A stretch of DNA of 64,000 nt, taken from contig OX597815.1 of the NCBI GenBank assembly GCA_951406725.2, forward strand, positions 107,322,001-107,386,000. The letters run 5' to 3'. The position numbers and the translations under genes were made by a program. This document shows, piece by piece, positions 3,630 through 50,486 of this stretch (position 1 is its first letter; each line of letters starts with the position of its first letter). The stretch comes from Octopus vulgaris. Lineage: Eukaryota. The notes beneath the pieces were generated by a model. That model had not been told where the DNA came from. It ran no database searches and was given only the letters and a program-made list of their open reading frames with translations.

Positions 3630-4964
3630 GTTATCTTCATGGTCAAGTTGTTTTATCAGTCATGACTTTGCTATTTTATTGCAATATGGCTTGGGAAAAT
3701 AAAATTCTAAATTTCTCTGTGCTATAAATTTATTCAGAACACCTTCAGAAATCTGGATCTTGTATTTCCTCTGTTGACATTCCTGCATTTCTTACAATCC
3801 TTGTGAGAAACAGTAGGGTGTAACTTACTGTTGACTCTCATAGCATTGATGCTGTGGTTTTGTTGTTGTTTTAGTGCATTAGCAAGAATGTTCATGAAGG
3901 AATGTTCTGTGAAGGATTACTTGCATACTGCCAAAATATGATCTGATGATGTGCTGCTGCATCCACATCAATAACAATACTAATAATGGTTTCAAATTTT
4001 GGTACAAGGCCAGCAATTTGAGGGGGGGTGTAAGTTGGTTGTATTGTCCCCCAGTAGTTGACAGGTACTTATTTTCAACTTTCAAAAGGTGAAAAGCAAA
4101 GTTGACTTTGGTGGAATTTGAACTCAGAACATAAAGACAGATAAAATGTCGCTAAGCATTTTTCCAGCATGCTAATGATTCTGCTGCTCACTGCCTAATG
4201 ACAATATTTATAATAACTGTTTCAAATTTTAGCACAAGGCCAGCAATTTTGTAGGTGGGGATTTGTTGATTACATTGACTCCAGTATTTCACTGATACTT
4301 ATTTTATCAACCCAGGAAGGTAGAAAGGCAAAGTTGACTTTGGCAGGAACTGAATATGAGATTAATTACAAATTCACACTAAAGATTCACTACTAATTGT
4401 CATATGAAAGAAGCATACCATTGACTAATTGTAGAAAGAATCTTAATCTGGCTGGCTCCAATCTAACAAATATTTGCTATGATAGATTTCTTCACTCAGC
4501 TGTCTCCTGCTCTGCTTGTGCGCATGGGATTCTTCACATATCTGGTTTTGTTGCACACTCTTCTCATCGTAACATGCCACAGGTTGCAAGTAAATGGTTT
4601 GGAAGGAGAAACTAGTGACTTCCATTCCCTGTAAAATTAAGGATGAAAAAAAAAAGGAAGATAAATAGAAAAAAACAAAAAAACAAAGAGAGCCAGTGAG
4701 AGAGAAAGTGAGTGAAAGGGGCAGTTGCAAATATCATCTCAAAAAGGAGTCGAAAGCTTATTACTGTTTAAGCAAGTGAATTTTGTGTACATCAATCATT
4801 GCAGTGTCAAGGTTTCATCTCAATGTTTATTGGTGGATGGTAGGTGATGGGTGGATGGTGAATGAAGTGCAGGAAGGAAGTCCGTCTTTGCAGTGATCAT
4901 AGCAGTGATAGTAATCAATATTGTACAAGAGATGAGGACAGTTTAACAAGTTATCTTATTCAAT

Positions 4965-5886
4965 ATCACTGTCGTCGTCACCACCACCACGGCGACCATC
5001 ACCACCACCACCACGACCATCACCACTATCATCATCCTCATCATCATCATTGTCCTCATCGTTGTCGTTGTTATCATCATCATCATCATCATCATTGCTA
5101 TCAACTTGAACACCTCTCTCTGCAGCAGCAGTAACAACAATAATAGACCAGTAAATCAGTCATCATCATCATCACCATCATTATCCTCATAATCACCATT
5201 ATCATCACGATCATTATCATCATCATCAGTGTTATTCATTGCCAGCATCAACTCTTCCACCAACACCATCACCACCATGACTACCATCATCACCACTAGT
5301 GTGTTCCTGTCTGCCAGCACCACCATTACCATCATTGCCATCCCCACCATTACTACCTTCACCATCACTATCACCATCACCACCACAACTACCACCATCA
5401 CCACCACCTGTGGGTTTTTCTCTGTCAGCACCACCATTATCATTATCACCATCACCATCACCATCTCCAACACTACTTTTGACAGCATCACCACTACCAC
5501 CATCACCATCATATTCACCCATTATTACTACCATCACCTGTATGTCACACTCTACCAACCTATCACAACCATTGCAACTACCAGCATCTATGCTATTCTA
5601 CACCACCACCACTACCAGCACCACCAGCACCACCAGCACCAGCACCACCCACAATGACAACCCCTTCCCCTACTACCATCATTTCACCACCATTACTATC
5701 ACCACTATATGTGTTACTTTCAAGTGGCACCACCACTATTACCATCACCACTACTACCAACACCCATGTGTTATTCTCTGACATCATCATCATCACTACC
5801 ATTAATATCATCAAATTAATACCATCACCACTACCATTAATACCATCACCAATGCCATCACACTCACCACCACCATCACCACTACT
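4965..5886. repeat. Degenerate (CAT/CAC/TAC)n trinucleotide low-complexity tract
   Basis: Direct reading; source of the poly-His/Thr/Met pseudo-ORFs. Confidence 0.9.
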
Positions 5887-6213
5887 TTAATTAGCAACTA
5901 AAAAAAAAATGAGAGAACCTCTATGTGGTTGTCCAATTTGGTAGAAATAACAAGCCAAATCATCCTCCAATGAAACACTAACATCTTGAGAAAGGAAGGA
6001 GACATCTGACAGTGACAATAACTGTGACAAAAATGATCCTTTCTACAATAAGTGCAAGGCCTGAAGTTTTGAGGGAAAGGAGCTATTTGATTACATCAAC
6101 CCTACATTTCAACTGCTTTGTCTGGATGAAGACAAAGTTGACCTTGGCAGCATTTGAACTCAGAAAGTAATGCTGGAAGACATGCCACCAAGCATTTTGT
6201 CGCATGCTCTATT

Positions 6214-6427
6214 ATTCTTTTACTTGTTTCAGTCATTTGACTGCGGCCATGCTGGAGCACCGCCTTTAGTTAAGCAAATCGACCCCAGGGCTTATTCTTT
6301 GTAAGCCTAGTACTTATACTATCGATCTCTTTTGCTGAACTACTAAGTTATGGGGATGTAAACACACCAGCATCGGTTGTCAAGCGATATTGGGGGGACA
6401 AACACAGACACACAAACACATACACAC

Positions 6428-6479
<52 letters not shown>

Positions 6480-6652
6480 GACGGGCTTCGACAGGCTTCT
6501 TTCAGTTTCTGTCTACCAAATCCACTCACAAGGTTTTGGCTGCCCCAAAGCTGTAGTTGAAAACACTTGCCAAAGGTTCCACGCAATGGAACTGAACACA
6601 GAACCATATGGTTGGGAAGCAAGCTTCTTACCACATAGTCATGCCTGCACCT
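6214..6652 (-). mobile_element. tRNA-derived SINE (family A) with internal microsatellite
   Basis: Reverse complement of the 17827-18233 family; nested in a minus-strand family B copy. Confidence 0.85.
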
Positions 6653-6763
6653 ATAATATGCTAATGGTTCTGCCAGCCAACAAGAATACCAGCCACAGGA
6701 AGGGCATCCAGCCATAGAAACTTATAAACATGTGTGTGTGCATGCGTGTATGCATGTGTGCGT

Positions 6764-6795
<32 letters not shown>

Positions 6796-6805
6796 GCCTG
6801 TTTGC

Positions 6806-6841
<36 letters not shown>

Positions 6842-6934
6842 ACTGGAAAACTTAACAAATAATCAAATGTTAAGGCTCATTCCACACTTCACTCCTGTAT
6901 CCAGCAGGGCTAGACAAAAGGCATCAAACCAGAG

Positions 6935-7208
6935 TTTAGGTTTGACGAGGCTGGCAACGGCCACAATCGCACGTAAAAAGCACCATCCGATCGTGGCCGT
7001 TTGCCAGCCTCATCTGGCACCTGTGCCAGTGGCACGTAGAAAGCACCCACTACACTCTCGGAGTGGTTGGCGTTAGGAAGGGCATCCAGCTGTAGAAACA
7101 CTGTCAGATCAGACTGGGCCTGGCGTAGCCTTCTGGCTTCCCAGACCCCAGTTGAACCATCCAACCCATGCTAGCATGGAAAACGGATGTTAAACGATGA
7201 TGATGATA
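6935..7208 (+). mobile_element. 5'-truncated RTE LINE 3' end (family C) with (GAT)n tail
   Basis: GGCACGTAAAAAGCACC units, then GTGGTTGGCGTTAGGAAGGGCATCCAGCTGTAG...GGAYGTTAAACGATGATG; linked to RTE ORF2 at 46515. Confidence 0.8.
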
Positions 7209-7455
7209 ATAATATTACTTAGAACTATAACCTTAAAATAATTACTAGGGTGGCAAGCTGGCAGAATCATTAACATGCCAGGCAAAATGCTTAGCAGCAT
7301 TTTTTCCATCTTTATGTTCTAAGTTCAAATTCTGCTATGGTTGACGTTGCCTTTCATCCTTTCAGAATAAGTACCAGTTGAGCATTGGGGCTGATGTAAT
7401 CAAATTAACCCCTCCATTGATATTGCTGGCTTTATGCCAAAGTTTGAAATTTAAT

Positions 7456-7808
7456 GCAAGAGCACTCAGAGAGTGCAAGCACCAACGTTTTCTTAACGAT
7501 TAGCCAGAGATGGCTTTTTAAAATGAGAATATCTGAAATAAACTCGACTGCTCTCACAAATGAGAATACTAAAACTGAACCCGACTGCTCTCAAAGATTA
7601 AGTAAAAAAAACAGGAAAAATAATCCAGAATCCTTGCCCGGTTCTAGATTGATCCCAAAATCTAATCAGTTTGTGCCCGTCATGAGGCCAAACATCCCTG
7701 AGAGTTTCATCCTAATCCATCCAGGGGTTCTTGAAATATCTTGTCCATGGACAAACAAACAAACACGACTGAAAACAATACCTCCACTTTTGCTAAGGGG
7801 GAGATAAA
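7456..7808 (+). mobile_element. Probable Helentron-associated (HINE/DINE-like) non-autonomous element
   Basis: Starts CAAGAGCACTCAGAGAG; internal (CAAA)n microsatellite followed by GAAAACAATACCTCC and a degenerate terminal hairpin. Family assignment is from recollection. Confidence 0.45.
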
Positions 7809-8059
7809 AATTGCAATAATACTAATTATTGAATTTGGTTTTAGGTTAAAGCTTGCTTAAACCTTATCATTGTGTGTATATATGTGTTTGTTTAAGTTTG
7901 CATTTATATTTATTTAAGTGTACTTTATGTTTTTACATGTATGTCCATAAATGTGGTTATGTTTTTATGCCTGTATTATATTTGTTTAAGATGTTTTCAG
8001 GTATATATATTTTTTTCTTTGGTGAGTGTACAGGTCCATGAGTGAGTATACTTATATTT

Positions 8060-8610
<551 letters not shown>

Positions 8611-9508
8611 CAGCAAGACATTAACATTATACATAAAAATATATATATAGAAATATACCAGAAAAAAAAACCAAAAACCATTTTTAAGCTACTGTTTCTT
8701 AATATACTGGCCTTATTGTTTATGATGTTGATGCTGATATCGTTGTTGATATTAGTAGCTGCCAGAACAATTCAAGTAGAGTCATTGTGTAGATTTCCCC
8801 AAAGATACCAATGGAAAAAGCATATTTTTAGTAGTAAAAGCTTATATCATATATTCCTTACCATTCTGATTCTACTAATGTAACTCTGATGTTGAGGCAG
8901 TTGACTACCATGTCACTCACTATTGTGTTTATTGTTTTAGTATTGATTCTTTTTGTTTTTTGATTCAGTTAACAGTTTCACTCCATCGTCATCACCCTTG
9001 TTGTTGTTGCTGTTGTTGTTGTTTTAATATCCTCTTTTCCATGCTTGCTTCAGTTGGCACGGTTTATTTGAGACAGATTTTCCACAGCTGGATGCCCTTT
9101 CTGTCATCCACCCTCACCTGTCTTTAAACAAGGTAATATTCCCCCATTGCCAGGTATGTTCTCACAGAATATAGGAAATTAATGACACTGCCTGTATGAC
9201 AGTGGCACTCATTTACAACTATCACACAATGTTAAGACATGGAAACACATGCACACACTCAAACACAAATACATACATACATACATACACACATACATAC
9301 ATACATACATACATACATACATACATACATACATACATACATACATACATACATACATACAAATATGCATACATTCATACACACATACAGCCAGACAAAT
9401 ATAAAATATAAAGAAAGTCAGCGGGTATGAGATGAATATATTTATTTCACCAATTTTTAAGTTATGGGGATGTAAACAAACCAACACTAGTTGTGGTGGT
9501 GGTGGTGG

Positions 9509-9576
<68 letters not shown>

Positions 9577-9682
9577 AATCCCCCCCCCAGAAATGAAGAA
9601 CAAACACAAGATAAAAAGCAACACTGTGAGGACATGGTACATGCAATGTATTAGCAGATGTTTAGGGAAGGAAGGAAAGGTG

Positions 9683-9717
9683 GCTTTACGTTTCGAGCAA
9701 AGCGTTTCTTCAGAAAC
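9683..9717 (-). ncRNA. Minimal type I hammerhead ribozyme motif in a (TA)n-flanked insert (9573-9784)
   Basis: Minus: GTTT CTGAAGA AACGCTTTGCTC GAAA CG TA AAGC. Stem I GTTT/AAGC, palindromic stem III ACGT, GUA site; stem II decayed. Confidence 0.65.
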
Positions 9718-9781
9718 AGGAGACAGAGGAAAGTCCAAGTGAAAAGGAAGACAGAGGGAAAAAATCGCCAACGATTCACAT

Positions 9782-9873
<92 letters not shown>

Positions 9874-10176
9874 TTAATGTCTGTGTTCTATGCTTGCATG
9901 GGTGGGATGGAACCATAAGAGCAGGCCAAGCAGAAGCCTGCACCAGACTTCTGTGACTGTTTTGGCAGGAGTTTTACAGCTGGATGCCCTTCCTAACACC
10001 AACCACTTTACAGTGGGGACTGAGTGCTTTTTATATGGCACAAGCACAGGCAAGGTGAGTAGTAGTTTTAACTTGGTACAAACACAGGGGAAGTCAGTTT
10101 TGGCAAGGTTTTTACAGCTGGATGCCCTTCCAAACACCAACCAATTTACAGTGTGGACTGGGTGCTTTTAAATTTC

Positions 10177-11074
10177 ACAAAAATAAAAATGACACTGACA
10201 TCTCATTTTAACAGATATATTTATCAAAATTACCTAAAAATATCTTCTTTTCAACAAAATTGCCATTGGCTTCAACCACAGCCTCCAGATGACTTTGTAA
10301 TCTCCTGTAAATCTTCTGGACAGCTCTTTGTATAAGTTAGTCAATGCTGCCATAATCCTTGCCTTCAGTTTATCTTTGGTGTTATAAGGAGTTTCGCTTG
10401 TCTCTTACTCAACTGTGTCCCACACATAATAATCAAGGGGGTAGCAGTCTAGGGAGTTATGTGGCCAGATGTTAGGAGTGACGTGATTACAGAAATTGTC
10501 TGACAGCCATGACTGAGTTCTCCTGCTTGTGTGGCATGGTGCAGAGTCCTGTTTTCAGACATAAGGGTTTTCCTGCAGCTGTCCTCTTTATCCAGGACAG
10601 CACTACCTACTCCAGGCACTGTGTTGAGTCTGAGGCCATGTAGGAAGACGAATGGAGGCATAATGTTGCCATCACTAGTGATCGCTCCAAACACCATGAT
10701 GTTGACTGGATGTTTGACTTTCATCACTCTTGGTTCATGTTTTGGGGACAGAGCAAACCAACAATTGTTCTGTGTGTTCACCATCTGATCTTGGTAGAAA
10801 TTTTTCCTAGCAGAAACCAAAGCATGTCTGGATGAAGCAGATGCTTGAGTTTGTTCAAAAGCTTTGTAGTTCAGTATTTCCTCTTGTCCTTGATGACTTG
10901 GGATAAAAATTAGCCCTTTTTCATCTATGTATGAGGAGTGCCAAATGTCTTCATGCACTCCTCATACATAGATGAAAAAGGGCTAATATACTGTATAGTC
11001 AGCAATATCAAAAACAATGTACATGCGTGAAGTTAAAAATATAAAATGGCAACAATTTATCTATCACACCCTGT
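10177..11074 (-). mobile_element. maT (DD37D)-like transposon, internally deleted
   Basis: KNFYQDQMVNTQNNCWFALSPK...KHPVNIMVFGAITSDGNIMPPFVF; terminus ...ATTTATCTATCACACCCTG-TA. Confidence 0.85.
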
Positions 11075-11116
11075 AATATATATATATAATGAATAAAAAC
11101 ATGGTAGATATGTCAG

Positions 11117-11200
11117 CTCATTACAGTTGTTTCTTACATAACTTTTAATGAAGAATGAGAAACATTAGATCATTTTTAAAGGCTGTGATCATCAGATGAG
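11117..11200 (-). ncRNA. Type I hammerhead ribozyme motif with canonical core
   Basis: Minus: CTCAT CTGATGA [55-nt imperfect stem II] GAAA CAACTG TA ATGAG. Perfect 5-bp stem I, near-palindromic stem III, GUA site; about 25 bp from (TA)n. Confidence 0.75.
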
Positions 11201-11889
11201 AATGAAGGGGTATCCCAAGAATTGCACTCACTGGACTGTGGTCATGCTGGAGCACTGCTTCGATGGGTTTACTTGAACAAGTCAGCCCTAAGTGTTAATT
11301 CTAGCAAATTGATCAACCATTTGGTAGCTCCTTCATTGACTCTGTTAACATGTATGCTGTTGTGCTTTAACATGAATTAATGACAGATGCTTCAGATGAG
11401 GCCCTTTATTCTATCTTCTTGATAAAAGACCATGACTGTAGTAATAGCCTCTGTTTTATCTGACAATACCATATTAAAGACATTTTTTGCTTTTATTATC
11501 AACTCAATTCATGCAAATGATGGCCATCGTCAGCCACTACCAATCAATTCTTGCAACTATCATTATTTAAGAAATGTGGCTCATTAACAATACAATAAGA
11601 AAAATTGGTGTCTTCTATATAAGAATCTACATTATAGGAAAGTTCTAAAATAACAGCATTCAGAATAACAGAAAACAACAATTAATGACACAATTGCTGT
11701 CATTGCATATCTTACAGTCTACTTCAGCCATCATGAAAATGATTTTTATAAAAATTCTTAAATGTTTATACTTGCCACAATTAAGTAATAGCCAAGTAAT
11801 TTCTCCTCTCTCTCCCTCTTGCACTCTCTTCCTCTTGCCCCCTCTCCCTCTCTCCCTCTCTTCCTCCTCTCTCTGAGTTGGCTAGTGAA

Positions 11890-13165
11890 GGGGTCAAGAA
11901 AAGATGTGTTTATGAGGATCAGCATAAAAATTCACACACTGACCAAGATACTCTCCTGGAATGTGGTCAAATGAGGTTAATTTTTCAACATAGTCCTCCT
12001 TGTGGTCCATGCACTTCTATCGTGTTGCAGTTCTAGAACCCCATTGGTGAAGAAGCTTTCATCCTGCTGGTAAAATTAAGTCATCAACTCCAGATATGAC
12101 ATCATCAACACTGCAATACTGGTTCCTAGCCATGTGCTTTTTCATGTTGGATAACAGATGATAGTCAGATGGAGCCAAATCAGGAGAATAGAGAGGATGA
12201 TCAACCAGTTCAAAGCCACAGTCACACACTGTAGCCATTGAAAATAAGGACTTTTGTGTTAGAACATTATCCTGATGAAACAAGACCCCTTTTGTCAGTT
12301 TTCCTGGGTGTTTGATCTTGAAAGCCTTTCATAACTGCCTCAGCAAGTTGTCATTGTACTCTCCATTGATGTTGTAGCCCTTTGAAGATAGTAAATAAAC
12401 AGAATGCCTTTTGCATTCTAAAAAACTGAGGCCATCATCTTCCCTGTAGACGAAACGACCATGGCCTTCTTTAGTGTAAGTGAGGGGTGGATTATGTCTT
12501 TGTATCTGGCTCAAAGTGATGAAGACAACACTCATCTTGGTTAAGGAAACATTCAAGGAAACCAGCTGGATCTGCTTCAAACAATGTCAGATTATCCTAT
12601 GACGTGGTTAGCCAGGTGCGCTTTTGATCAGGTGTCTGAAGATGTGACACTCACCAATGAGAAGCCTTCAAGTTCTTTGTGCAAAGTATTCTCAACTCTC
12701 TCATGGGATATGCAAATAGTGCAGTTGGTCACCTGTCATCTATCACCACATGGTGAAGACAATCAATGTTTTCATTGGTGGTGGCAGTTGCAGGACATTC
12801 AAACCTTGGGTCATCTCCAAGACTCTCCCTTCCCCTACTAAATTAAGCTGCCCACTTCTGCACTGTTGACAAAGCTGGAGCATCATCCTCTAATGCAGTA
12901 AACATGTCAGCATGAATATTGCTGGGGGCTAAATCCTTTTCCCACAGGTTCTTGATAACACAACAATTCCAACTTTTGCTCATATTCAAGAGAAGTTGCT
13001 ACTATTTGCATTTGAAGTCTTTTTTGAACTGTCAGATGTGAGTTTACCTGGAAAGGAACAATGCAGTTATTAATAAGAAGAGTTGAAATTGATGCATGCA
13101 TAATTTCATGGCTCTAGCACCACTCCTTCATAGTCAGCCAATGAACTTTTCAGCCCACCCTTGTA
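11890..13165 (-). mobile_element. mariner (DD34D) transposon, near full-length pseudogene
   Basis: FHQDN...HPLYSPDLAPSDYHL with 34 residues between the last two Asp; TIR CAAGGGTGGGCTGAAAAGTTCATTGGCTGA next to TA; multiple stops and frameshifts. Confidence 0.9.
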
Positions 13166-13328
13166 CATTGCAGTCTAACAAATCCCTTTACTGCCACTCT
13201 GTGAGAAGAATAGTTGATCGAGTGATATCTATTATACTGTATCTCTATATTTTATTTGCTTTCCTCTCCCTCCAACTCCTCTTTTATCTCCTAATATAAT
13301 AATGAGCGTAGTGTTTTTTTTTTAATAT

Positions 13329-13371
<43 letters not shown>

Positions 13372-14732
13372 CACATTTGTCCAGAATCATGCCAGACGTG
13401 GAGGGGGAGAGAAAATAATAATTCAGTGAAGGAGAAGTAGTGAGAGTAATAGCCCTGACAGAGAAGGAGTGAGAGAAAGTAATGGCAATGAGAGAAAGGA
13501 AGGCGTGATAGATGAATAAGGAAGGGATGGGTGAAAAATAATCAGTGTTTAAACTCTGTGTAAGTATATGTGTGCATGTGAGTGCGTGAACAAGTGAAGT
13601 ATGTGAATGTTTGTATGTGTGTTTATTATGACCTTATTTTGTACCTTATTTATACATAAAATACTACAGTTAATCATCATTATTGACAGCACGTAGTCAG
13701 CTAGTTTACATAATAAATGCATTTAAAAACAATTCCTTGACTAAGGAAAATTCACAATCACACCATTTCAGTTTCTTGAGATTGCTATTATTTTGTAAAT
13801 ATTTATTGAATTAGATTTTGTTCTGAAACAAAGGCAATGTTTTAGATTAATCCAGGTATTTATGAGTATATTAATACCTAGAATAATTCTTGTAAAATGC
13901 TAATACCAAGAACAAGGGAAGAAATATTAAAGGGAAAACAGAAAAAATATAAAACAACAGAACTACTTGCTCAACTTGTGAGAAATAAGGAAAATGAATC
14001 TTCCTCAAAGCACATCATCATTGGTCGATTGTCCACTTTTTCATACTTGCTTATGTTAGAGAAGTTTATTTGTTAAGACAGATTTTCTATGGCTAGATGC
14101 CCTTCCTATCACTATACCTCATCTGCTTCCAAGTAAGGTAATATTTCCCCATGGTTAGGTATGTCCTAGGCATGGGGAAAGTTGGAAACAGGGGATACTA
14201 ATTGAATGAAAATGGTGCTCATTTACAAGAACACACATGCATCTATACACACATCCTTGCAAACACAAACACACACACACACACACACACACATAGTATT
14301 TTTATATAAGCTTAAAGCTTATGGTGATCACTGTACTATGACTAAGGAAAATAGTGTAAAGGGGCATATAAGCCCTCGACAGAAAAAAGAAGGCTTACCT
14401 ATATATATATATATATATACACACATACACACATGTATATAATGAGCTTCTTCCAGTTTCCATCTGCCAAATTCCCTTACAAGGCTGTGGTCAGCTTTGG
14501 ATTATCATACACTTGTCTAAGGTGCCATGCAGTAGAATTGAACCTAAAACCATGTGGCTGGTTACTGAACTGCTTAACCCCACAACCGTGCCCACATCTA
14601 GTCTTGTCTGTTACTAGACTAGCACTTTACTAGAAATACCTACTGTCTTGAAAAAAATGAAGAATACATTAGATAAAGCTGTGGAAAAATAATAAGGTCT
14701 AATAAAGAAAAGGCATATTGAGAAACATTCAA

Positions 14733-15092
14733 CTCCGGGTTCAGTCCCACTGCGTGGCACCTTGGGCAAGTGTCTTCTACTATAGCCTCGGGCCGACCAA
14801 AGCCTTGTGAGTGGATTTGGTAGACAGAAACTGAAAGAAGCCTGTTGTATATATGTATATATATATATGCGTGTGTGTGTTTGTGTGTCTGTGTTTGTCC
14901 CTCTAGCATTGCTTGACAACCGATGCTGGTGTGTTTATGTCCCCTGTTACTTAGCGGTTCGGCAAAAGAGACTGATAGAATAAGTACTGGGCTTACAAAA
15001 GAATAAGTCCCGAGGTCGAGTTGCTCGATTAAAGGCGGTGCTCCAGCATGGCCGCAGTCAAATGACTGAAATAAGTAAAAGAGTAAAAGAGT
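14733..15092 (+). mobile_element. SINE family A, 5'-truncated
   Basis: Near-identical to 17827-18233. Confidence 0.9.
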
Positions 15093-15443
15093 ATGCTTCT
15101 AATACTCAACATTTAAATTGGACATATCCATAGTCAGTGGAAAATAGTCAAATAGACATTTGCGAGCTTATGAAAACCTAGTAATGTATAGAAATATAGA
15201 TGATAGCAACAGAATGTGATCACAAGAAATATTGACAAAATATTTTTATCAAAACTTTTTTGAAATGTCAGCACAGATATTGTTTTATGAAGCAGAGACA
15301 GAGAGCAAGGAAGGTAGGTATAATGTAAATAGCAGCTGCTCATTGAATGTGCATATATCACTCAGTGACAAAAACAAGTAGATGATATGATACTGTATAC
15401 TGTATATTGTATCTCATCCATACATACACATGCATATATTCGT

Positions 15444-15504
<61 letters not shown>

Positions 15505-15779
15505 TAGATGTTAAAGAATGATGTTAACAATGTATCTATATATATATGAATATATATGTGTATGTATTTAAGAATTTTTTGTGAAATGAGATAAAAAACC
15601 AAGGTTGTGTAAATATTAGAACATTTATAGATAGATGTGTATGTATTTATGTATGTCTGTTCACATGTATGCATATGCATATATATATATATATATATAT
15701 ATAGATAGATAGATGGATGGATATAGATAAATAAATAAATATATGGAGTTAAACGCAGGTATTATTCAATTCTTTATAC

Positions 15780-15864
15780 TTCCAACATATGTTTCGAAGA
15801 AAACATTGTATTATTCCCGAAGGAATAAAATAATGTAAAACAACACAATCTTCTCATCAAGGAA
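15780..15864 (-). ncRNA. Hammerhead motif, left-arm copy (C3U)
   Basis: Minus: TTCC TTGATGA GAAGA...TATTCC TTCG GGAATA...TCTTC GAAA CATATG TT GGAA. Confidence 0.65.
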
Positions 15865-16427
15865 AAGAAGAAACCAAATACATCAACAAGACATTTTAAC
15901 AGAATGTGATGACTGCGTATATGAGGAAGAGAATGGTGGCAAGTCATTTTTCAAAAAAACCATTAATAGATATAATGTCAAAGGCAATTTATAGAAAGAG
16001 AAGGAGGAGAAAGAAAGTAGCAGAAAATTAATAGTGTAGAAATATAGAGCAATAGGTGAATATGTGTAAAGCTTAAAGGCATTGAAATCGATATATTTAG
16101 TGGATATGAAATGTAAGAAAACAGTTAAAGCTTGAGGTCTACGAATATATAGAGCTTGTTCTTTAACTGTTTTCTTAAATTTCATATCCACTAAATATAT
16201 CTATTTCCACGCCTCTAAGCTTTATACGTATTCACCTATTGCTCTATATTTCTTCACTATTAGTTTTCTGCTAATTTCTTTCTTTCCCCTCCTTCTCTTT
16301 CTATAAATCACCTTTGATGTTATATCTATTAACGTTTTTTTTTTAAATGACTTGCTACCATTCTCTTCATCATATATGCAGTCATCACATTCTGTTAAAA
16401 ATGTCTTGTTGATGTGTTTGTTTTTTT

Positions 16428-16514
16428 TTCCCCTGATGAGAAGATTGCATTGTTTTACATTATTTTATTCCTTTAGGAATAATATTAATGTTTTCTTTGA
16501 AACATATGTTGGAA
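16428..16514 (+). ncRNA. Hammerhead motif, right-arm copy
   Basis: TTCCC CTGATGA(16433-39) GAAGA...TCTTT GAAA(16499-502) CATATG TT GGAA; palindromic stem III. Confidence 0.7.
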
Positions 16515-16713
16515 GCATAAAAAATTGAAGAACACCTGTGTTTAACTCCATTTATTTATCTATGTTATACAAAAACATTTCAGTTAACCCTGGAATTTCT
16601 ACCTTTATAAGTAGGCTATCACATCCTTGGTACCTATGTGAATTTTTGCTACCCTGGCAACTATTTATTTATTTTTTCTGTGTTGTTTGTACACATTGAA
16701 AAAATACACATAC

Positions 16714-16759
<46 letters not shown>

Positions 16760-16833
16760 ATATACATATATATATATATATATAAATAGATAGACAGACA
16801 GATCAATTGATAGATAGATAGATATATGTGTAT

Positions 16834-16884
<51 letters not shown>

Positions 16885-17273
16885 CACACATACACACACA
16901 TATCCACATATCTACTACTTGTATTTATATTTGATGATCTTCATTATTTTAGCAGAAAGCTTAAGAAATTATGCACACATGCACACACACATGCACACAT
17001 ACACACACATACACACACACACGCATACATGCACATGCATTCCACCACACTTACAACTGCATATAATATTGATATCCTAGTAATTATTGTTAAGTCAACC
17101 GTGTACTCTTATGCATATAAGTTATGTCATTCACAATACATCAAAAGTTTTGTCGAGGTATCAAGTAAATTTGCTCTAATATCATTCGTAGTTTAAGAGT
17201 GTGAGTTTAATGAGTCTTCAGTTCAATCCTCATTCCTTCATGGAACCACTTCCACTGTGAAAGACTACATATA

Positions 17274-17731
17274 CAAGGAGTTGGACAAAATAATGAAAAC
17301 ACCTTCAACTTTCAAACAAATTTATTTTAATATGGGGTAGGACTGCCTTTGGCAATAATTGTAGCTTGAATTCTACAAGATATGGACTTGTACAAAGTTT
17401 GAATTGCTTCCAAAGGAAGTTTTGTCCCTTTTTCAGCTAAAACAGTCTCTAGTTCTTGTAGTGGTGATGGTGGAGGATATCAACTCCTTACTTGTTTTTC
17501 TAAAATGCACCATAAATGTTCAATGATATTGAGATCTGTCATTTTAATGAATTTTAATTACCTTCTTCTGATGATATCTGAAAAGAAACAGCAATTTTAG
17601 CAAAACATATTAAGCAACACTAATAACAAATCAAAAAACATAAAAATAAACAAGCTTTTGATGGTTTTATAAATATTTCAAAATTATGATGCTATGATGC
17701 TAGGTGTCTCCATTATTTCATCCAACTCATG
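17274..17731 (-). mobile_element. Tc1-like internally deleted element with both TIRs
   Basis: TIRs CAAGGAGTTGGACAAAATAATGAAAACACCT / AGGTGTCTCCATTATTTCATCCAACTCATG with TA on both sides; minus strand encodes DLNIIEHLWCILEKQV...AKGSPTPY. Confidence 0.88.
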
Positions 17732-17826
17732 TATATGGATGTAACTAATCTCATCTTCATTATAAAGCATTGTGTAATATTAGATTGGCCCTCAATTTGT
17801 AAGAAAGCACTAAATTCATTATCATA

Positions 17827-18233
17827 GGTGCAGGAGTGGCTGTGTGGTAAGTAGCTTGTTTACCAACCACATGGTTCCGGGTTCAGTCCCACTGTGTGGC
17901 ACCTTGGGCAAGTGTCTTCTACTATAGCCTCGGGCCAACCAAAGCCTTGTGAGTGGATTTGGTAGATGGAAACTGAAAGAAGCCCGTCGTATATATGTAT
18001 ATATATATATATGCATGTGTGTGTTTGTGTATCTGTGTTTGTCCGTCTAGCATTGCTTGACAACCGATGCTGGTGTGTTTACGTCCCCGCTACTTAGCGG
18101 TTCGGCAAAAGAGACCGATAGATTAAGTACTGGGCTCGCAAAGAATAAGTCCCGGGGTCGATTTGCTCGACTAAAGGCGGTGCTCCAGCATGGCTGCAGT
18201 CAAATGATTGAAACAAGTAAAAGAGTAAAAGAG
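17827..18233 (+). mobile_element. tRNA-derived SINE family A, full length
   Basis: A-box TGGCTGTGTGG, B-box GGTTCAGTCCC, CCTTGGGCAAG core, central (TA/TG)n, tail GGCGGTGCTCCAGCATGG...GAAACAAGTAAAAGAGTAAAAGA. Confidence 0.9.
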
Positions 18234-18816
18234 TATAATGTCTTAATAAGTGAAGGTGCATAGCTCAGTGGTTTGAGCATTGGGCTCACAGTAGTCAGTT
18301 TGATTCCTGGACCAGACTGTGTATTGTGTTTTTGAGCACGACATTTTATTTCACATGGCTCCAGTTCACTCAGATGTAGAAATGGGTAACAATGTCACTG
18401 GCACCAAACTGTATTGCATTTTGGGATAGTGTTTTTTTTTTTTTTTTTTACCAAATAAACACATGAGAATGCAATAAACAGGACAGAAGGAGACATGTGG
18501 GATAGTGAGTCCCTGAAGGGGTCACAGGATGTGTGACAAAAGATTTCAGACAAAGGACACTAACATAAGAATAATAAAAAAGCTGAAGTGAAGAATGAAT
18601 ATGTAATGTGTGTATTTATTTTTACTGGCAAAAAAAAAAAAAAAAAAAAGAAACAACTATCTCTAAATATAACAATATTTGTTGCAACACACTATTTCAT
18701 ATTAGGAATCTTGCAGAATAAATACATAGACGTAATTCATAAAATTACTATTATAAAGTCCAAGCAATAATAATAGTTGTATTTCATTAGATATTTCATG
18801 TAGAGAAAACAGTATA

Positions 18817-19039
18817 CAGTAACCCCTCGCCATATCATGGTTCACCTATCATGGTTTATTATTTAAGCTTACTTCGATTCCTCTGTGGTGTTGTTTTGCA
18901 TTTATAATAAAATAAATATATACAAATTATAAAAATAATAAGAAAGAATATACAGTATAGTACTGTTTCTACTTCATGGATTTTCACCCATCGCAGGGAT
19001 TTTTGGAACTTATCACCTGCAATAGTCGAGGGATTACTG
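18817..19039. mobile_element. pogo/Tigger-like MITE
   Basis: TIRs CAGTAACCCCTCG / CGAGGGATTACTG with TA TSD. Confidence 0.8.
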
Positions 19040-19166
19040 TATGTGTCTGCACACTTTTACCCACTTCTCCCACTTCCTCACTCCTGGCCACTATCTTTAA
19101 TAAAGACATGTGATTTATTCCCTGGCAACTCATTACTTCTTCTTCATCTATGTATAGGAACAATAT

Positions 19167-19554
19167 GTGGAGGCGCAATGGCCCAGTGGTTAGGGCAGCG
19201 GACTCGCGGTCATAGCATCGCGGTTTCGATTCCCAGACCGGGCGTTGTGAATGTTTATTGAGCGAAAACACCTAAAGCTCCACGAGGCTCCGGCAGGGGA
19301 TGGTGGTGATCCCTGCTGTACTCTTTCACCACAACTTTCTCTCACTCTTACTTCCTGTTTCTGCTGTACCTGTATTTCAAAGGGCCGGCTTTGTCACTCT
19401 CTGTGTCACGCTGAATATCCCCAAGAACTACGTTAAGGGTACACGTGTCTGTGGAGTGCTCAGTCACTTACACGTTAATTTCACGAGCAGGCTGTTCCGT
19501 TGATTCGGATCAACCGGAACCCTCGTCGTCATAACCGACGGAGTGCTTCCATCC
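19167..19554 (+). mobile_element. Young tRNA(Arg-like)-derived SINE with TSD
   Basis: A-box TGGCCCAGTGG, B-box GTTTCGATTCC; CpG-rich; 13-bp TSD ATAGGAACAATAT / ATAGGTACAATGT. Related heads at 18252+, 28685- and 47130+. Confidence 0.85.
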
Positions 19555-19724
19555 ATAGGTACAATGTTTGGGTGTACTACCTCTTGTCATTCATACTTTC
19601 TTATATGTGTGTATATGTGTGAAGTATATGTATGTGCATTTGTGCACATGTGAATGTGTGGTGAGATGGGTGTATGTATAATGCTTACATATATAGATAT
19701 GAAATATCATTCCTCCAGTATATT

Positions 19725-20150
19725 TAGGTAGGCGGGGGAGCCAGGCTAGCGGAGTTCTGTGATGTAAATGACCTAATGATCAGCAACATAAACTTCAGGG
19801 AACCATCCAGCCAGCCAGCCAGTCGGCCAGCCAGTTCACCTGATCAGCTATCAATCTGGTGGCCACACGAGCCAGATTGAAGACATTCACAGCAGAAAAA
19901 CGGAATAGACAGATTCTTGTGAATGCAAAGTTTTTCTCTTGTGAAGAATGTGCATACCAACACAAGTTAATGATTAGAGAGTTCAGACTGAGAGCTTGGA
20001 GGACTCAGAGACACAGACCAGAATATAAAAGTGAGATGTGGATGCTTAATGATACAAGATGATATTGTTGAAGCACTTGATAAAAAGGAGGAGGAGGAGG
20101 AGGAGGCTATAGAGATATTTAGCACAGAAGTCAACAAAAAGTTCCAATGA
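19725..20150 (+). mobile_element. RTE LINE apurinic-endonuclease fragment
   Basis: RLAEFCDVNDLMISNINF...HLISYQSGGHTSQIED...NAKFFSCEECAYQHKLMI resembles the APE C-terminal motifs of RTE elements. Confidence 0.7.
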
Positions 20151-20676
20151 TGCTGGTATGTTTACATTCCAATAACTTAGTGGTTCAGCAAAAGATACCG
20201 GTAGAATAAATACTAGGCTTACAAAGAATAAGTCCTAAGGTAAGTTTTTTTGACTAAAGGCAGTGCTCTAGTATGGTCACAGTCAAATGACTGAAACAAG
20301 TAAAAGAGTAAGAGAATAATGTAAAATTGGTCATAAGATGTAAGCTACTTGGTTGTCCAATCCTTTACTGACAGCCATCTTAATTGTTTTGTATGTATTT
20401 TCTTATGATTTCTGCAGGTTTTTACTGCTGTACGACAAGAGTCATCCACTCTGCTAGAAATAGAAACCAAACTTCCTTTATATCATACTCTATCATCTTA
20501 AAAAATAAAAGACGCAATAAGACATTTGGTAATTTAGTTCTGGAGGTATAACAATATAAATGTAGATTGGAAGGTCATAGATGGAACATCTTTAGTTACG
20601 AATCTACGCCAACAGGGCAGGACTGACATAGAGCAAAAACAACAAACACAAAATGCAGTTGTGTGCATGCAACATA

Positions 20677-20707
<31 letters not shown>

Positions 20708-20731
20708 CCATACTCATGTGTATGTGTGTGT

Positions 20732-20768
<37 letters not shown>

Positions 20769-21429
20769 TGTGTGTCCATCCATGCATGCTTACACACACA
20801 TGCATCCATATGCAATTTATTATGCAATATTTCCTTCCCTTTGAAAATGTTTTAATGTATTGCACTGATGGATTGATTGCCTGCTAGAAACCATGAGGCT
20901 TGCTTAGTATAAACCTCATCAAAGTAAATTATTTCTGCAGGATATGATGAAAGACAGAAAAAAAAAATCAAAACAGGTAAAGAATGAAAGCAAAAATATT
21001 TTCAAAGTGACATTCGGCATTAAATTCAGAGAATAGTATTAGCTAACACATGCCTTACTACAACAATTGCAATATAGTGCAATTTACATTTGCATCTTAT
21101 GTCAATAAAATCATCTCAAAATTCCCAATTTAGTCATATAGCTGCTTAATAATGAAGTTACTTATGCATTTACTTTATTTGTATTTTATTTAGATATATT
21201 TTGCTTTCCTGCGCATTTCTTTTTTATTATGTTTTTAAGAGCATTTAAATTATTTTTTGTTCTGTGCAGCCTTAGGTTGGAATAGTAATGAAGATACAAA
21301 AGAAAAAAAATGCCTGCCTCACTGAAAAATTATCATATTTTATTAAATAGCATGCCATCACTAACTGTAACTTTTAAACCAGTTATGGGCAAACTGTGGC
21401 CCATAGGATTTTTTGAATGGTATGCTAAA

Positions 21430-21649
21430 CCCTTTAGCAGTTAAACTGGTTATATCCAACCAAAATATTCTACTGTTTTATGTTCAAACTAGCCGGATCT
21501 GGCCACTACCATCTACCCTATAATGTAATTCTAGAAATAAGCAATCAGATCTTTTTAAATCTCAAAGCTACAAGACGATACATGATTAACTCAAAACAAT
21601 GTGAATAAACAAACAATGCATTTGTCAAAATAACCTGAATGCTAAAGGG
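21430..21649. mobile_element. piggyBac-like MITE nested in a hAT-like MITE (about 21380-21752)
   Basis: CCCTTTAGCA...TGCTAAAGGG termini with TAAA/TTAA flanks; second copy in opposite orientation at 56951-57146. Confidence 0.75.
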
Positions 21650-22174
21650 TTAAATGGAAAATTACCTTGAATTTTTTTAGTACTGTAGCCTATGTGATGA
21701 GGAGCCATGTCTCCTGTGGTCCACATCTTGAAAAAAGCTGCCCATATGCTTGCATTAAACTGTAGCATAGAAGTGGTAACAGGCAAACTAGTAAAGGGCT
21801 GTCCTAGTGTGAATCAGAATGGAAATAAAAACAAAGCAAAGGCATGAATTTTGGTGTTACCAAGTTGAAGGCTGGCATTTCTAGCACAGCATTATACCTG
21901 TGAAGAATTGTTTGAGTGAAGTTGTGGTGACAATTTTTTAGTAAGAGAGACTAAAAATGTATGGAGTTATGTCCATTATATGCACAAAAGAAAGAGGAGG
22001 AGAAAATAATTCTGTCTGTAGACTTTGAATAATTGAAATTGACAGCAAGCAAGCATTAATATCTATGTGTCTTGAAACACAATGGCAGCGCTATTTTATT
22101 GAACATTTTGTGTCGTGGTTTAGTACTCATATTTTGGATATTAGAAGTTTTTGTTACATGTATAAAACATGGGA

Positions 22175-22330
22175 ACTTCTATGGGGTTGTTCAACCGGCT
22201 AGAAATAGTAACTAAGCCTCTTAGATATCATATCCTACCATTTTAAAAATAAAATCATGTCTGGGGATGAATGTTTGGAATGTTTCGATCATATCTTCTT
22301 GATGAGGGCTTACCTGTGAATAAACAACAA
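22175..22330 (+). repeat. Old interspersed repeat (family D) ending in (CAA)n
   Basis: Motifs GCTAGAAATAGCAGCCAAATCT...GGAATGCCTTTGATCATAGG recur at about 5915, 20445, 27950, 32400(-), 41670(-), 42265, 55750(-) and 62160. Confidence 0.6.
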
Positions 22331-22373
22331 GAACAAGAACAAGAACAACAACAGCAGCAGCAGCAGCAACAGC

Positions 22374-22405
<32 letters not shown>

Positions 22406-24377
22406 GACTGATCAGTTTTACTCCTGTTTTCCTTTGGCAATCATTTCTTATCAAATAGATGTCTTACCATGTTTTATATCCTTATTCTCACATTAGCTCC
22501 TCTTCTTCAGTTATATCAAATGTACATCACATTTGCCCAGATATATGTGTAGATATTATACCAGAATCTTAGGCCATAGACTGTTTTGGTTGGTCTAACA
22601 CATTAATATCCATTATTTAAATATCTTTCATATATAAATTCTATTAATGTAGATTTCATTATTTCCATTATTTTTCAAAAAAAAAAACCCAAATAAACTG
22701 AAAGACAGTGTATTTAGGATGACATTATCCAATATCAATTTCTCTTTATTTTAAATGATAGAGTGTGATTTGATGGAAATTTGGCTGCTATTTTTAGCAG
22801 TCAAGTTTCTAACCACTTTGTGTTGATGGAATACATTTCCTCTATGATAAAGTAATATTTTACTTTCATTAATTACTACTAAAGAAAATTGTTATTTGCA
22901 ATAATTTTGTTTACCTTGAATGAATGGAAACAGTGCAGTGATGACCTTTTAGCCTCATAGGTCACAAATCAATCTTATTAGTGTTGGTGTCTTGATTAAA
23001 ATATACCCAGCACACTCTGTAAATATTAACAAATGAACAGAGAAAGTGTAAGTTTGAAAGAACCATTTAGTTTGGCCAAGGACAAAGCAATCTTTCAAGA
23101 GTTTGTGTTACAATAAAATGCACCCTACACACATGGTTAACAAATGAGGAGGATAAAAGTTGGGTTAAGAGGGCCTTTATTCGGGCCATGGACAAAACAA
23201 TCTCTATGGAACTGGTATCATAATAAAATGCACCCAGTGCATCGTCAAAGTGGCTGGTGATAGGAGAAGCATCCAACTATAGAAACCATGTCAAAATGAA
23301 ATGTTTTGAGCAAGATGTTAGATTCAAATCTGTCTAAGATGTCAGTAATTTTGAATGAGAACTGACTTGGATCATAATGACTTACTTAACCTATGCTAGG
23401 GTGAAAAGTGGATGCAAAAATTATGCTGCTGCTGTTGATAATGTGATAATGACAATGATGGTGATGACAATGACAATGATAACAACAATGGTGATGAAGA
23501 TAGACATAATGATTATGATAGAATGGAAGATATAATTCCCAGGAAAAGGGATCTTCAATTTGCTATGGATTCTGAGCTCCAAATCACTTTATTCATACTA
23601 CAACTACCTTTGATAAATATACATACTTGAGAAAATGGGACAGCCTTTAAGGTGTTAAATAACTGCTAAAAATGAGTTTTGCAAAGTGCCATTTCTCACT
23701 AAATTTGCTGATAAATTTATCAGAAGAGCCCTGTAGCTAGTTTTCATAGTTTACAAGTCATGCAGAATCCAGTGTCCAACATAGACTTCAACTGATTATT
23801 AAGAAATTATCTGCCTAAGGAATACATAATCACTTCTTTTGTTCCTGTTCTTATTGTTGTTGTTGATAATTCCATTAATTTCATTCAAATAAAACAAATG
23901 ATAAAACAGTAGTCAGTTAAACACTTAGTATTTGATAAAACAGTAGTCCAACTTGTTGGACAAATCAGAATAAAGAGTCAGATGAAGAGTAGCATCCTTG
24001 ACACTTTTTATTCAAAGACTCATTGGCTGACGTAAGGAAGGGAAGAATGTTATCTATGGACTGGAGATTGGGTCTGAAACACAGTGAACACAATTAGAGG
24101 TATCCAAGGACAAGAATTAAAATCAAGTAATGGTATTATCATTATTAAAGCTTGAGATAAGCTGGCAAACTGGCAGAATTGTTAGCAGACCAGACAAAAT
24201 GTTTAATGGCATTTTGTTCATCTTTATATTCTGAGTTCAACTTCTGCTAAAACCAATTTTGTTTTGCATCCTTTTGGGATAGATAAGATGTGTACCAGTC
24301 AAGAACTGGTGTTGATGTAACTGACTTACTTCCTTCCCCAACATTGCTTGCCTTGTGCCAAAATTTGAAACTTGAAA

Positions 24378-33744: not shown

Positions 33745-35335
33745 TGTTTAATTAGGATGAATATTGTTACATGGTTATGAAAAGGGAGAAAACTGTAAAC
33801 CAGACTAGCAATATCTCCATCAATGACTTGACTGTTTCCCCTATATCTGATGAGGGATGTTACAGGTATCTAGGGAGTCGATGAAAACATGTATTACAAT
33901 GGCACCAGTAGCAAAACATGTGTCACTAAAGAATATTACAGCCAAATAAAGAAAATTTGGACCTCAGACTCTCTGCATTCAATAAAACAGTGGCCCACAA
34001 TGTGTTTGCAGTGCCAGTACTCATACTAGAATTTGGGCTGCTTGATTGAACGATTGATGAGATCTTAGCCATTGATGTGAAAATCCCCAAAATACTAACA
34101 AGCACACATAATTTCCACATAAACAGTGATGTAGACTGCCTCTACCTAAAATGAAAACAAGGCAGAAGAGGCGTAACATCAATCCAAAATGCCTTTGAAT
34201 GTCGTATCATATCCCATTTGGTAACATCTTTTAACCATCAAGTGCCAAAGTGCATCCCTTGACCAAGTTGGCATAGATTAGGTTGATAACATCAGACTTG
34301 GAAGGCAGCTCCTTGAGCAGCATAGCTTGTCTGATAACCTTAAATACATACCCAAAGAGGTTGCACAACTCTACCGCAATGTTTCATAAGATGAAAAAAT
34401 GAGCATATATCAGCTGAAGGCTATGCATGTATAGGTTAGTGGTTTGCAACCCAGGAACAAGAAATATCAACCAAATACTTGATGCACAAAAGGGATAGAA
34501 ATGCAGGAAAAGCAGTAAAATGTGGCAAATGATGCAGACTTTGTGGAGTTAACACCAAAGATATCACTCACATCATAAGCAGTTGTCTGAAAATGTCATC
34601 ATAGTATTATCTACTAATGGGACATGATGTTGTCACTAGGACACACGATAATGAAATCCGTCAGAAGGATAATCCCATAGACAAAGAAATAGGAACCCAC
34701 AATATCGTAGATGCCATAGCCACTCATAATAAAAAGGAATACTGGTGGAATGTCCCAGCAAAAACCACCATAAAATGTAAGCACAACAGATCTGATATAA
34801 TGATTTGGGATAGAGAAGAGAAACTGTGCACAGTTGTGAAAATTAGCTGCCCAGTGGATGTTAACATAACACTCAAGATCAGTGAAAAAGAGAATACCAA
34901 CACTGAACTATTGAGAAATCTGAAGTTACTCTATCCAGATTACAAGTTCAGGTTTATGCCTGTAATTATTGGAGCCCTGGGATATGTAACACAATGCCTA
35001 AATACTAATCTAGAGAGAGAAATTAGGATTCTCAAAACTAGAAAGGAGAAAGCTTATTCAAAGACTACAGATCCAATCCATAACTGGAACTGTAAAAATC
35101 TGTAAAACTTTCCAGAAGTTTATCATTTAATTATATATGAGCAAGTCTAGATATGCCACTATATGCATATGAATGCATACATAAAGTAAAGCATACAAAT
35201 CTGCACATGTAAATAGATACATACATGCATACAAAAATACCCTGTTGATGTTGAAATTACAATGAAAGAACCCTGGATCTAGGTTAGAAACTGACTCTTT
35301 TTCTATGAGCAAGAAATCTTAAAATAAAACAACAG
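33745..35335 (+). mobile_element. 5'-truncated R4/Dong-like non-LTR retrotransposon (RT thumb, CCHC, RLE nuclease)
   Basis: CYRYLG, AFNKTVAHNVFAVPVL, SDVDCLYLK*KQGRRG, CRLCGVNTKDITHIISSC, GHD, NRSDIMIWD...ISCP...IIGALG; flanked by (TACA)n on both sides. Confidence 0.88.
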
Positions 35336-50367: not shown

Positions 50368-50486
50368 GCTTACAGCCATATCACATTGAAAACACCAGTT
50401 CTCATCCAATCACCAAAGTTAAGCAACATCGAGCCTAGTTGGTACTTAGATGGGTGACTGCTTGAGGAACCTAGGGGCTGTAAGCA
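50368..50486 (+). pseudogene. 5S rRNA pseudogene, full length (119 bp)
   Basis: GCTTACAGCCATATCACATTGAAAACACCAGTTCTCATCCAATCACCAAAGTTAAGCAAC...GTACTTAGATGGGTGACTGC...GCTGTAAGCA. Terminal helix GCTTACAGC/GCTGTAAGC; many CpG-type substitutions; solitary; no T-run terminator. Confidence 0.9.

Follow-up and report, generated by a model that had tools for sequence, protein, structure and literature searches.

Two decayed, head-to-head copies of a hammerhead-bearing repeat family form a 0.8-kb inverted repeat in Octopus vulgaris

Introduction

What kind of event leaves an inverted repeat of 0.8 kb with a hammerhead ribozyme motif in each arm, and do the ribozymes or the hairpin still have any function? 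This question is raised by positions 15727 to 16716 of the 64-kb stretch of Octopus vulgaris DNA that was analysed as a whole (the window). Penelope-like elements (PLEs) account for 6.83% of the O. vulgaris genome and comprise 190 families according to the accessible part of the supplement of PMC13282606. The inverted repeat is built from two copies of a repeat family that is present in high copy number; both copies are short and decayed, and each contains a hammerhead motif. Probably, a single event of Penelope-like retrotransposition inserted two 5'-truncated 3' ends of this family between (TA)n tracts in head-to-head orientation, and decay followed.

Structure of the inverted repeat

Local alignment of 15727-16141 with the reverse complement of 16150-16568 gave 368 matches, 44 mismatches (29 of them transitions) and 10 gap columns. 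The initial annotation had described an inverted duplication of about 810 bp at 15743..16716 with arms differing mainly by transitions. Both the duplication and the predominance of transitions were borne out, and the duplication is slightly longer than claimed. The inverted repeat itself reaches only to 16568, however, and the rest of the span (16569-16716) lies outside it, yet is family sequence. The 833-nt hairpin has a predicted folding energy of about -517 kcal/mol on either strand, and none of 20 shuffled sequences was equally stable.

The left flank (15679..15726) runs from (TA)n into GATA/GGAT repeats and is likely the target microsatellite, with a TRF array called at 15679-15744. It is followed by the left copy (15727..16130), a 5'-truncated family fragment with its sense on the minus strand, which ends at a short 3' end corresponding to the mirror of about 16563-16568. 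Between the two 5'-truncated ends lies a junction of 7 nt (16131..16137), 2 of which match the family upstream sequence in register. The right copy, on the plus strand, starts with a 5' extension (16138..16160) that forms most of the hairpin loop and makes this copy about 23 nt longer than the left one at the 5' end. Its paired part (16161..16563) is T-rich family sequence with the hammerhead region at its end and, compared to the left arm, shows 358 identical positions, 28 transitions, 11 transversions and 6 gaps. A 3' extension, or tail, of about 150 bp (16564..16716) is again family sequence and belongs to the right copy only. The right flank (16717..16878) is a (TA)n microsatellite (TRF period 2, 81 copies) and likewise a likely target. 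By themselves, (TA)n tracts on both sides of the unit say little, as (TA)n is abundant throughout the window. No other copy of the family was found within the 64 kb, the best other blastn match scoring 31.9 bits.

The repeat family in sequencing runs

The run index for the locus contained 20 entries from 10 studies under six organism codes. Contigs from four of the 24 listed runs, three of DNA type (organisms A, B and E) and one guessed to be RNA, were aligned to 16120-16716 at 80% likeness. The three DNA runs yielded 2617, 1855 and 2245 family contigs (2014, 1462 and 1845 of them, respectively, less than 95% alike), and the RNA-guess run yielded 232. This is plainly a high-copy, diverged family found under at least three organism labels, although summed contig depth is no copy number and run X1 may be the window's own sample. 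The finer details of the family are drawn from 40 of 137 variant rows, 15 of 77 joints, 24 of 967 loose ends and 32 of 7066 pieces.

Family depth and variants continue through 16580-16716 in all four runs, and listed pieces bridge 16427-16647 and 16423-16670. Because the family covers 16564-16716, the right arm is not terminal. At the opposite side, alignments stop at 16161 and share one common upstream consensus (17 contigs in X1 and nine in X3, among the 24 of 967 loose ends listed). The loop of the window, read in register on the plus strand, agrees with this consensus at 17 of 30 letters, including 15 of the last 23, and 17 matches were reached in 28 of 100,000 shuffles. Reading the loop as a continuation of the left copy was rejected, with 411 of 5000 shuffles being as good compared to 17 of 5000 for the plus-strand reading. 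As the loop matches the upstream consensus of the family, the 5' truncation points of the two copies differ, the right copy starting at about 16138 and the left one at about the mirror of 16161. A recurrent family end near 16563, leading into AT repeats, was observed in X3 (23 contigs) and X11 (19 contigs) with an agreement of the loose ends of only 0.5-0.56, and the end of the left copy coincides with it.

Depth in the junction bins of X1 was 85-203 versus 4642-23052 in the next bins, and 16120-16159 reached about 1-2% or less of the arm depth. The hairpin is thus particular to this locus and not a feature of the family. Among the 15 of 77 joints listed, X1 held two other opposite-strand joints at other places, and no go-back joint was present.

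The highest summed contig depth of 16120-16716 in X1, X3 and X22 was found at 16640-16679, a part of the tail that may be common to shorter copies or sister families. Family variant places were also skewed, with 32-34 T>C versus 6-8 A>G in all four runs, the DNA runs equally, an excess beyond what the composition (261 T versus 162 A) explains.

Comparison of the arms with the family at the 32 variant places listed within them showed a non-family letter in both arms at 13 and the family letter in the left arm at 15; the other four were three three-way differences and one gap (within the 40 of 137 variant rows listed). Independent decay would be expected to yield 0.6-2.4 shared non-family letters. 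The 13 observed therefore suggest that the arms derive from one template or subfamily, but local duplication at the DNA level or later gene conversion would fit them equally well. Mismatches between the arms are symmetric with respect to strand (15 G.U-type versus 14 A.C-type on the plus strand, p = 1.0), and C>T and T>C changes are balanced at 10 each. Decay since insertion thus looks neutral, and the 15 versus 14 symmetry rules out an ADAR footprint fixed in the DNA.

Hammerhead motifs in the two arms

The claim of a hammerhead in each arm was supported by a descriptor scan, which identified two outward-pointing type I motifs on opposite strands, 573 bp apart. The left motif (15779..15865, minus strand) has a 5-bp stem I, a core with C3 changed to U (TTGATGA, 15860-15854), a 58-nt stem II region with a UUCG cap and a predicted cut after 15784. 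In the right motif (16428..16515, plus strand) the core is CTGATGA (16433-16439), G10.1 faces U11.1, the stem II region spans 59 nt in three helices (16440-16498), and the cut is predicted after 16510. Both motifs have a palindromic helix III and a GUU site, and both cores are followed by GAAGA...TCTTY-GAAA-CATATG-TT-GGAA as described in the initial annotation. The TTCC that was said to precede the core in both arms needs correction, since the right copy reads TTCCC, hence a C.A mismatch in stem I.

In RNA terms, the motif is CUGAUGA...GAAA...GUU with five pairs in stem I and a helix III formed by the self-complementary 8-mer ACAUAUGU. The predicted fold of the stem II region has helices of 5, 5-6 and 7 bp in this order, the first two separated by a U.U loop and the last two by an asymmetric loop, and a tetraloop caps the third. 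In this fold, positions 9 and 10.1 follow each other without an unpaired base. The right copy, and apparently the majority of the family, has a type I core (CUGANGA...GAAA...NUH) with three helices, whereas the left copy fails at C3. Although the descriptor was written post hoc, after the motif had been seen, it gave no match in 2000 shuffled versions of the right arm and tail together. In whole-window shuffles, any match occurred in 1 of 100 when stem I had to be at least 4 bp and in 5 of 100 at a minimum of 2 bp. No hammerhead was among the 31 Rfam matches at E <= 10. The sole odd feature of the motif is its 59-nt, three-helix stem II, which is mildly new, and Rfam misses the motif.

Family variation suggests, judging from the ranking of the variant rows, that the family keeps CUGAUGA, GAAA and GUU. 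The family core was expected to be CTGATGA, and the 40 of 137 variant rows listed indeed held no common alternative letter at the core places. A possible GTC cleavage site had also been anticipated, but the site is GUU in both arms, with no common change at the cleavage base in the same rows. At 16430 and 16486, the letters prevailing in the family (84-90% and 93-97% of depth, respectively) re-establish Watson-Crick pairs; the CpG site at 16498 has 32-70% C in the family, and the remaining listed variants fall in loops. In the 40 of 137 rows, the listed variants keep or restore pairs and none is a compensatory double change, so the structure rests on consensus and not on covariation. The C(UUCG)G tetraloop reported for the left copy is present, but its standing as a hallmark of selection is not supported family-wide, because 72-81% of family depth has U at loop base 16475, making UUCU the prevailing loop in the family. 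The template of this insertion alone probably had UUCG, as the UUUA of the right arm is what double CpG decay of UUCG would leave.

Both hammerheads are damaged, the left one by C3U and the right one by its stem I mismatch. In addition, the constrained hammerhead fold was calculated at -13.0 kcal/mol versus a minimum free energy (MFE) of -20.3 kcal/mol for the left motif, and at -7.2 versus -16.3 kcal/mol for the right motif, placing the monomer fold 7-9 kcal/mol above the MFE in both. In a read-through transcript, 9 of 10 plus-strand and 10 of 10 minus-strand core bases are predicted to be unpaired with a probability below 0.03, being paired to the antisense arm, so that the locus would silence its own ribozymes. 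Given their opposite strands, the damage to both and the predicted pairing of the cores with the antisense copy, the ribozymes likely do nothing at this locus. Helix III did not form a hairpin alone, and its self-duplex between two molecules was calculated at -7.0 kcal/mol. Since this helix is a self-complementary 8-mer, an active family hammerhead would likely work only as a dimer or with the help of a protein.

Origin of the locus

The distance from the hammerhead to the 3' end is about 50 nt in one copy and about 200 nt in the other, and the copies, one of them inverted, are 5'-truncated and joined at their 5' ends, with the family continuing upstream of both. Together with the one-sided extension of about 150 bp and the recurrent short end, this layout is probably the outcome of twin priming. 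The RT-endonuclease of the element would nick the two strands at a (TA)n target and so prime two rounds of reverse transcription on one RNA or on sister RNAs, from the short 3' start at about 16563 and from another about 150 nt further out at 16716. Both cDNAs would then stop early, after about 400 and 580 nt, and joining of their 5' ends would create the hairpin with its asymmetric loop and one-sided tail. The interpretation as a PLE terminal repeat plus inverted copy, put forward initially, agrees with this anatomy, with the family data and with published precedent, but the coding part of an element was not reached. No Pfam match was found in the three arm frames, and the visible upstream consensus of the family comprises 30 letters, with no RT or GIY-YIG sequence linked to the family. 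A partial head-to-tail tandem, which forms the direct pLTRs of PLEs, was absent from this locus, and the 15 of 77 joints listed included no go-back joint. As neither reverse transcriptase nor endonuclease was found, we infer both the membership in PLEs and the clade.

Alternatively, a single retro-inserted copy could have been duplicated later in inverted orientation at the DNA level, by fold-back repair or template switch. The non-family letter common to both arms at 13 of 32 variant places and the extra 7 nt at the junction would fit such a history, which we nevertheless regard as unlikely, because a random duplication would not make the left copy end at a recurrent family end before AT repeats, and because the layout equals the one published for PLEs in the available sections of PMC8557442. 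Quite unlikely, too, is that the family itself is a non-autonomous hammerhead retroelement (a non-LTR retrozyme or SINE-like PLE derivative) moved by PLEs in trans. No coding sequence was found, the palindromic helix III resembles that of retrozymes in the accessible text of PMC7229834, and retrozymes have been argued to descend from PLE pLTRs (bioRxiv 10.64898/2026.07.22.740005, as far as accessible). The unit of at least 590 bp, however, exceeds the 170-400 nt of such elements, the family continues upstream, a head-to-tail tandem is absent at this locus, and the 15 of 77 joints listed gave no sign of one. A retrozyme tandem at the locus itself was rejected, as the copies are head to head only and TRF found no array of 170-400 nt.

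The initial annotation had named an ordinary MITE, recognisable by fixed symmetric TIRs and the lack of a conserved core, as the outcome that would speak against it. Long inverted arms without an ORF at high copy number are what a MITE or foldback DNA transposon would show, its hammerhead then being due to chance. Fixed TIRs common to the copies were not observed, and a TSD is unreadable in (TA)n. Since the family runs past the centre of the hairpin and through the right extension and has a recurrent end at about 16563, the arms are not fixed TIRs but two joined truncated copies. The low junction depth, a motif that beats shuffles and family letters that repair the hammerhead stems also argue against a transposon of this kind, making it highly improbable. 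A fold-back artefact of assembly or library construction, which the palindromic layout and the lack of a contig spanning all of 16120-16716 among the 32 of 7066 pieces listed might bring to mind, can practically be discarded. The 39 substitutions between the arms are biased towards transitions and CpG sites, and in X1 and X3 the depth of all contigs exceeds that of the others at 16154, which implies contigs carrying the letter of the window there. A single Penelope-like insertion of two truncated 3' ends remains the most probable reading.

Double-stranded RNA, editing and silencing

If transcribed, the hairpin is a possible substrate for ADAR editing or siRNA production, as had been suggested from its predicted structure. 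That the locus is a selected hairpin RNA gene, whose dsRNA is edited or diced to silence the family, is nevertheless very unlikely. The very stable predicted fold on either strand would favour it, as would the finding, in transgenic Drosophila, of siRNAs matching inverted Penelope regions (PMC3681739, accessible sections). On the other hand, the arms are about 10% different with a neutral mismatch spectrum, whereas G.U pairs should prevail if one RNA strand were under selection, and the RNA-guess run mirrors the DNA runs (8 versus 6-8 A>G and 33 versus 32-34 T>C). This run contained 0.00 of the words of the locus in addition to its family contigs and carries no weight either way on expression; no RNA run was listed for the locus in the run index. 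A dsRNA output would also not be new, as it has been described for the inverted Penelope copies in Drosophila.

Other features of the window

Antisense to the right hammerhead, a frame at 16222-16551 (minus strand) comprises 28 + 80 open codons interrupted by one stop and starts near the outer end of the arm. Its 80-codon part (16222-16464) had no relative at E <= 0.01 among 34 longer candidate proteins and no Pfam match, and the frame is probably compositional. Two direct copies of a SINE-like repeat of about 360 bp (14734-15094 and 17876-18236), 90-94% alike in four blocks, flank the hairpin at a spacing of about 3.1 kb; this repeat is presumably an octopus-type SINE, and surroundings rich in SINEs and microsatellites would suit an octopus genome. 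The only Rfam match in the window at gathering score was a 5S rRNA at 50368-50486 (plus strand, 82 bits, full model length), which has several non-standard pairs and is likely a pseudogene or 5S-derived repeat. Open frames at 10449-10961 (minus strand) and 52015-52467 (plus strand) are related (48% identical over 113 aa), lack a Pfam match and are presumably remnants of Tc1/mariner-like transposases. A 166-codon frame at 34605-35105 (plus strand) also gave no Pfam match and seems to us to resemble the restriction-like endonuclease end of a LINE.

Among viral contigs, 75 loci with a 16-nt motif were attributed to chance (best blastn match 37 bits over 29 nt), and the five of them with an upstream core-like word were otherwise dissimilar. 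Metagenome scans with two patterns returned no matches.

Significance and comparison with known systems

Taken alone, this fossil insertion is of minor importance, since publications already cover its layout, its hammerhead and even a possible siRNA output, although it neatly illustrates a probable twin-primed integration of a PLE with two 3' ends. The 59-nt stem II and the tail of about 150 bp are the parts not found in the literature searched, whereas the head-to-head layout is known. If the long stem II is family-wide and active, standard searches would miss part of the hammerheads in genomes of this kind, and the reported lack of hammerheads in some PLE clades would then have to be re-examined with long-spacer descriptors. 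Perhaps, though this broader picture is doubtful as a whole, the family represents an undescribed and very abundant PLE lineage in several related species, in which the three-helix stem II missed by Rfam and by short-spacer descriptors is a conserved protein docking site, the 150-nt tail marks two unusually distant RT starts, and many head-to-head insertions supply long dsRNA for host editing.

A search of the freely accessible literature retrieved no paper on this family, its 59-nt stem II or its 150-bp tail, and octopus hammerheads only in Craig 2021; the family may already be catalogued in Repbase, Dfam or supplements. Three motifs were absent from the 584,131 characters of the Craig 2021 supplement that were available, in which line wraps can hide matches. 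By eye, no match was seen to the hammerhead of Hydra-1_Obim or to the 3' ends of Naiad_Obim, Ovul and Omin as given there, and the Naiad clade, described there as being without a canonical hammerhead, was rejected.

Metazoan non-LTR retrozymes, in the accessible text of PMC7229834, share with the octopus family a non-coding, AT-rich sequence and a type I hammerhead with a weak palindromic helix III. They differ in forming head-to-tail tandems of 170-400 nt that yield circles, while the octopus locus is head to head, exceeds this length and offers no RNA with two ribozymes in sense orientation. A long insert between the core halves is known from PLE-X1_sMoe/sTam (Craig 2021 File S2, as available). 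The insert of PLE-X1_sMoe, about 53 nt, is by our own count the longest of the 34 rows in the Craig 2021 hammerhead table and is slightly exceeded by the 59 nt of the octopus stem, which in turn far exceeds the 7-17-nt spacer of the core search used in that study (PMC8557442, accessible sections). These elements are, however, EN-minus, reside in 28S rDNA of spike mosses and are unrelated in sequence, and the octopus motif is surrounded by repeats of an animal type.

Similar in architecture are the dual minimal hammerheads of Cervera and de la Pena 2014 (PMC4209133, accessible sections), which lie on opposite strands 100-700 bp apart and are tied to truncated PLEs. The distance of 573 bp falls within this range, and helix I of 4-5 bp, G10.1-C11.1, the palindromic helix III and the predicted need for a dimer, a type described there for metazoan PLEs, are held in common. 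Helix II in these hammerheads has 7-8 bp, unlike the three-helix region found here, and the predicted octopus fold would also differ by lacking an unpaired base between positions 9 and 10.1.

The overall layout matches that of PLE insertions in Craig 2021 (PMC8557442, accessible sections), which include inverted 5'-truncated copies, a one-sided tail of 30-40 bp and (TA)n targets; a preference for (TA)n or AT-rich targets is reported there for Neptune, Naiad and Hydra PLEs. Penelope-13_HM of the Hydra clade carries hammerheads on both strands (PMC8557442 supplement, as available). Insertions of this type share with the octopus locus the head-to-head arrangement, a 3' hammerhead on either strand, flanking (TA)n, a one-sided tail, a short palindromic helix III and a cleavage base other than C, but the octopus copies are shorter than 600 bp and without an ORF, and their tail is about 150 bp instead of 30-40 bp. 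A biochemical counterpart is offered by the anole Poseidon (PMC11167929), whose hammerhead requires protein and is dispensable for insertion in vitro, and whose protein cuts and extends both strands from two internal starts, the interval between them corresponding to the tail.
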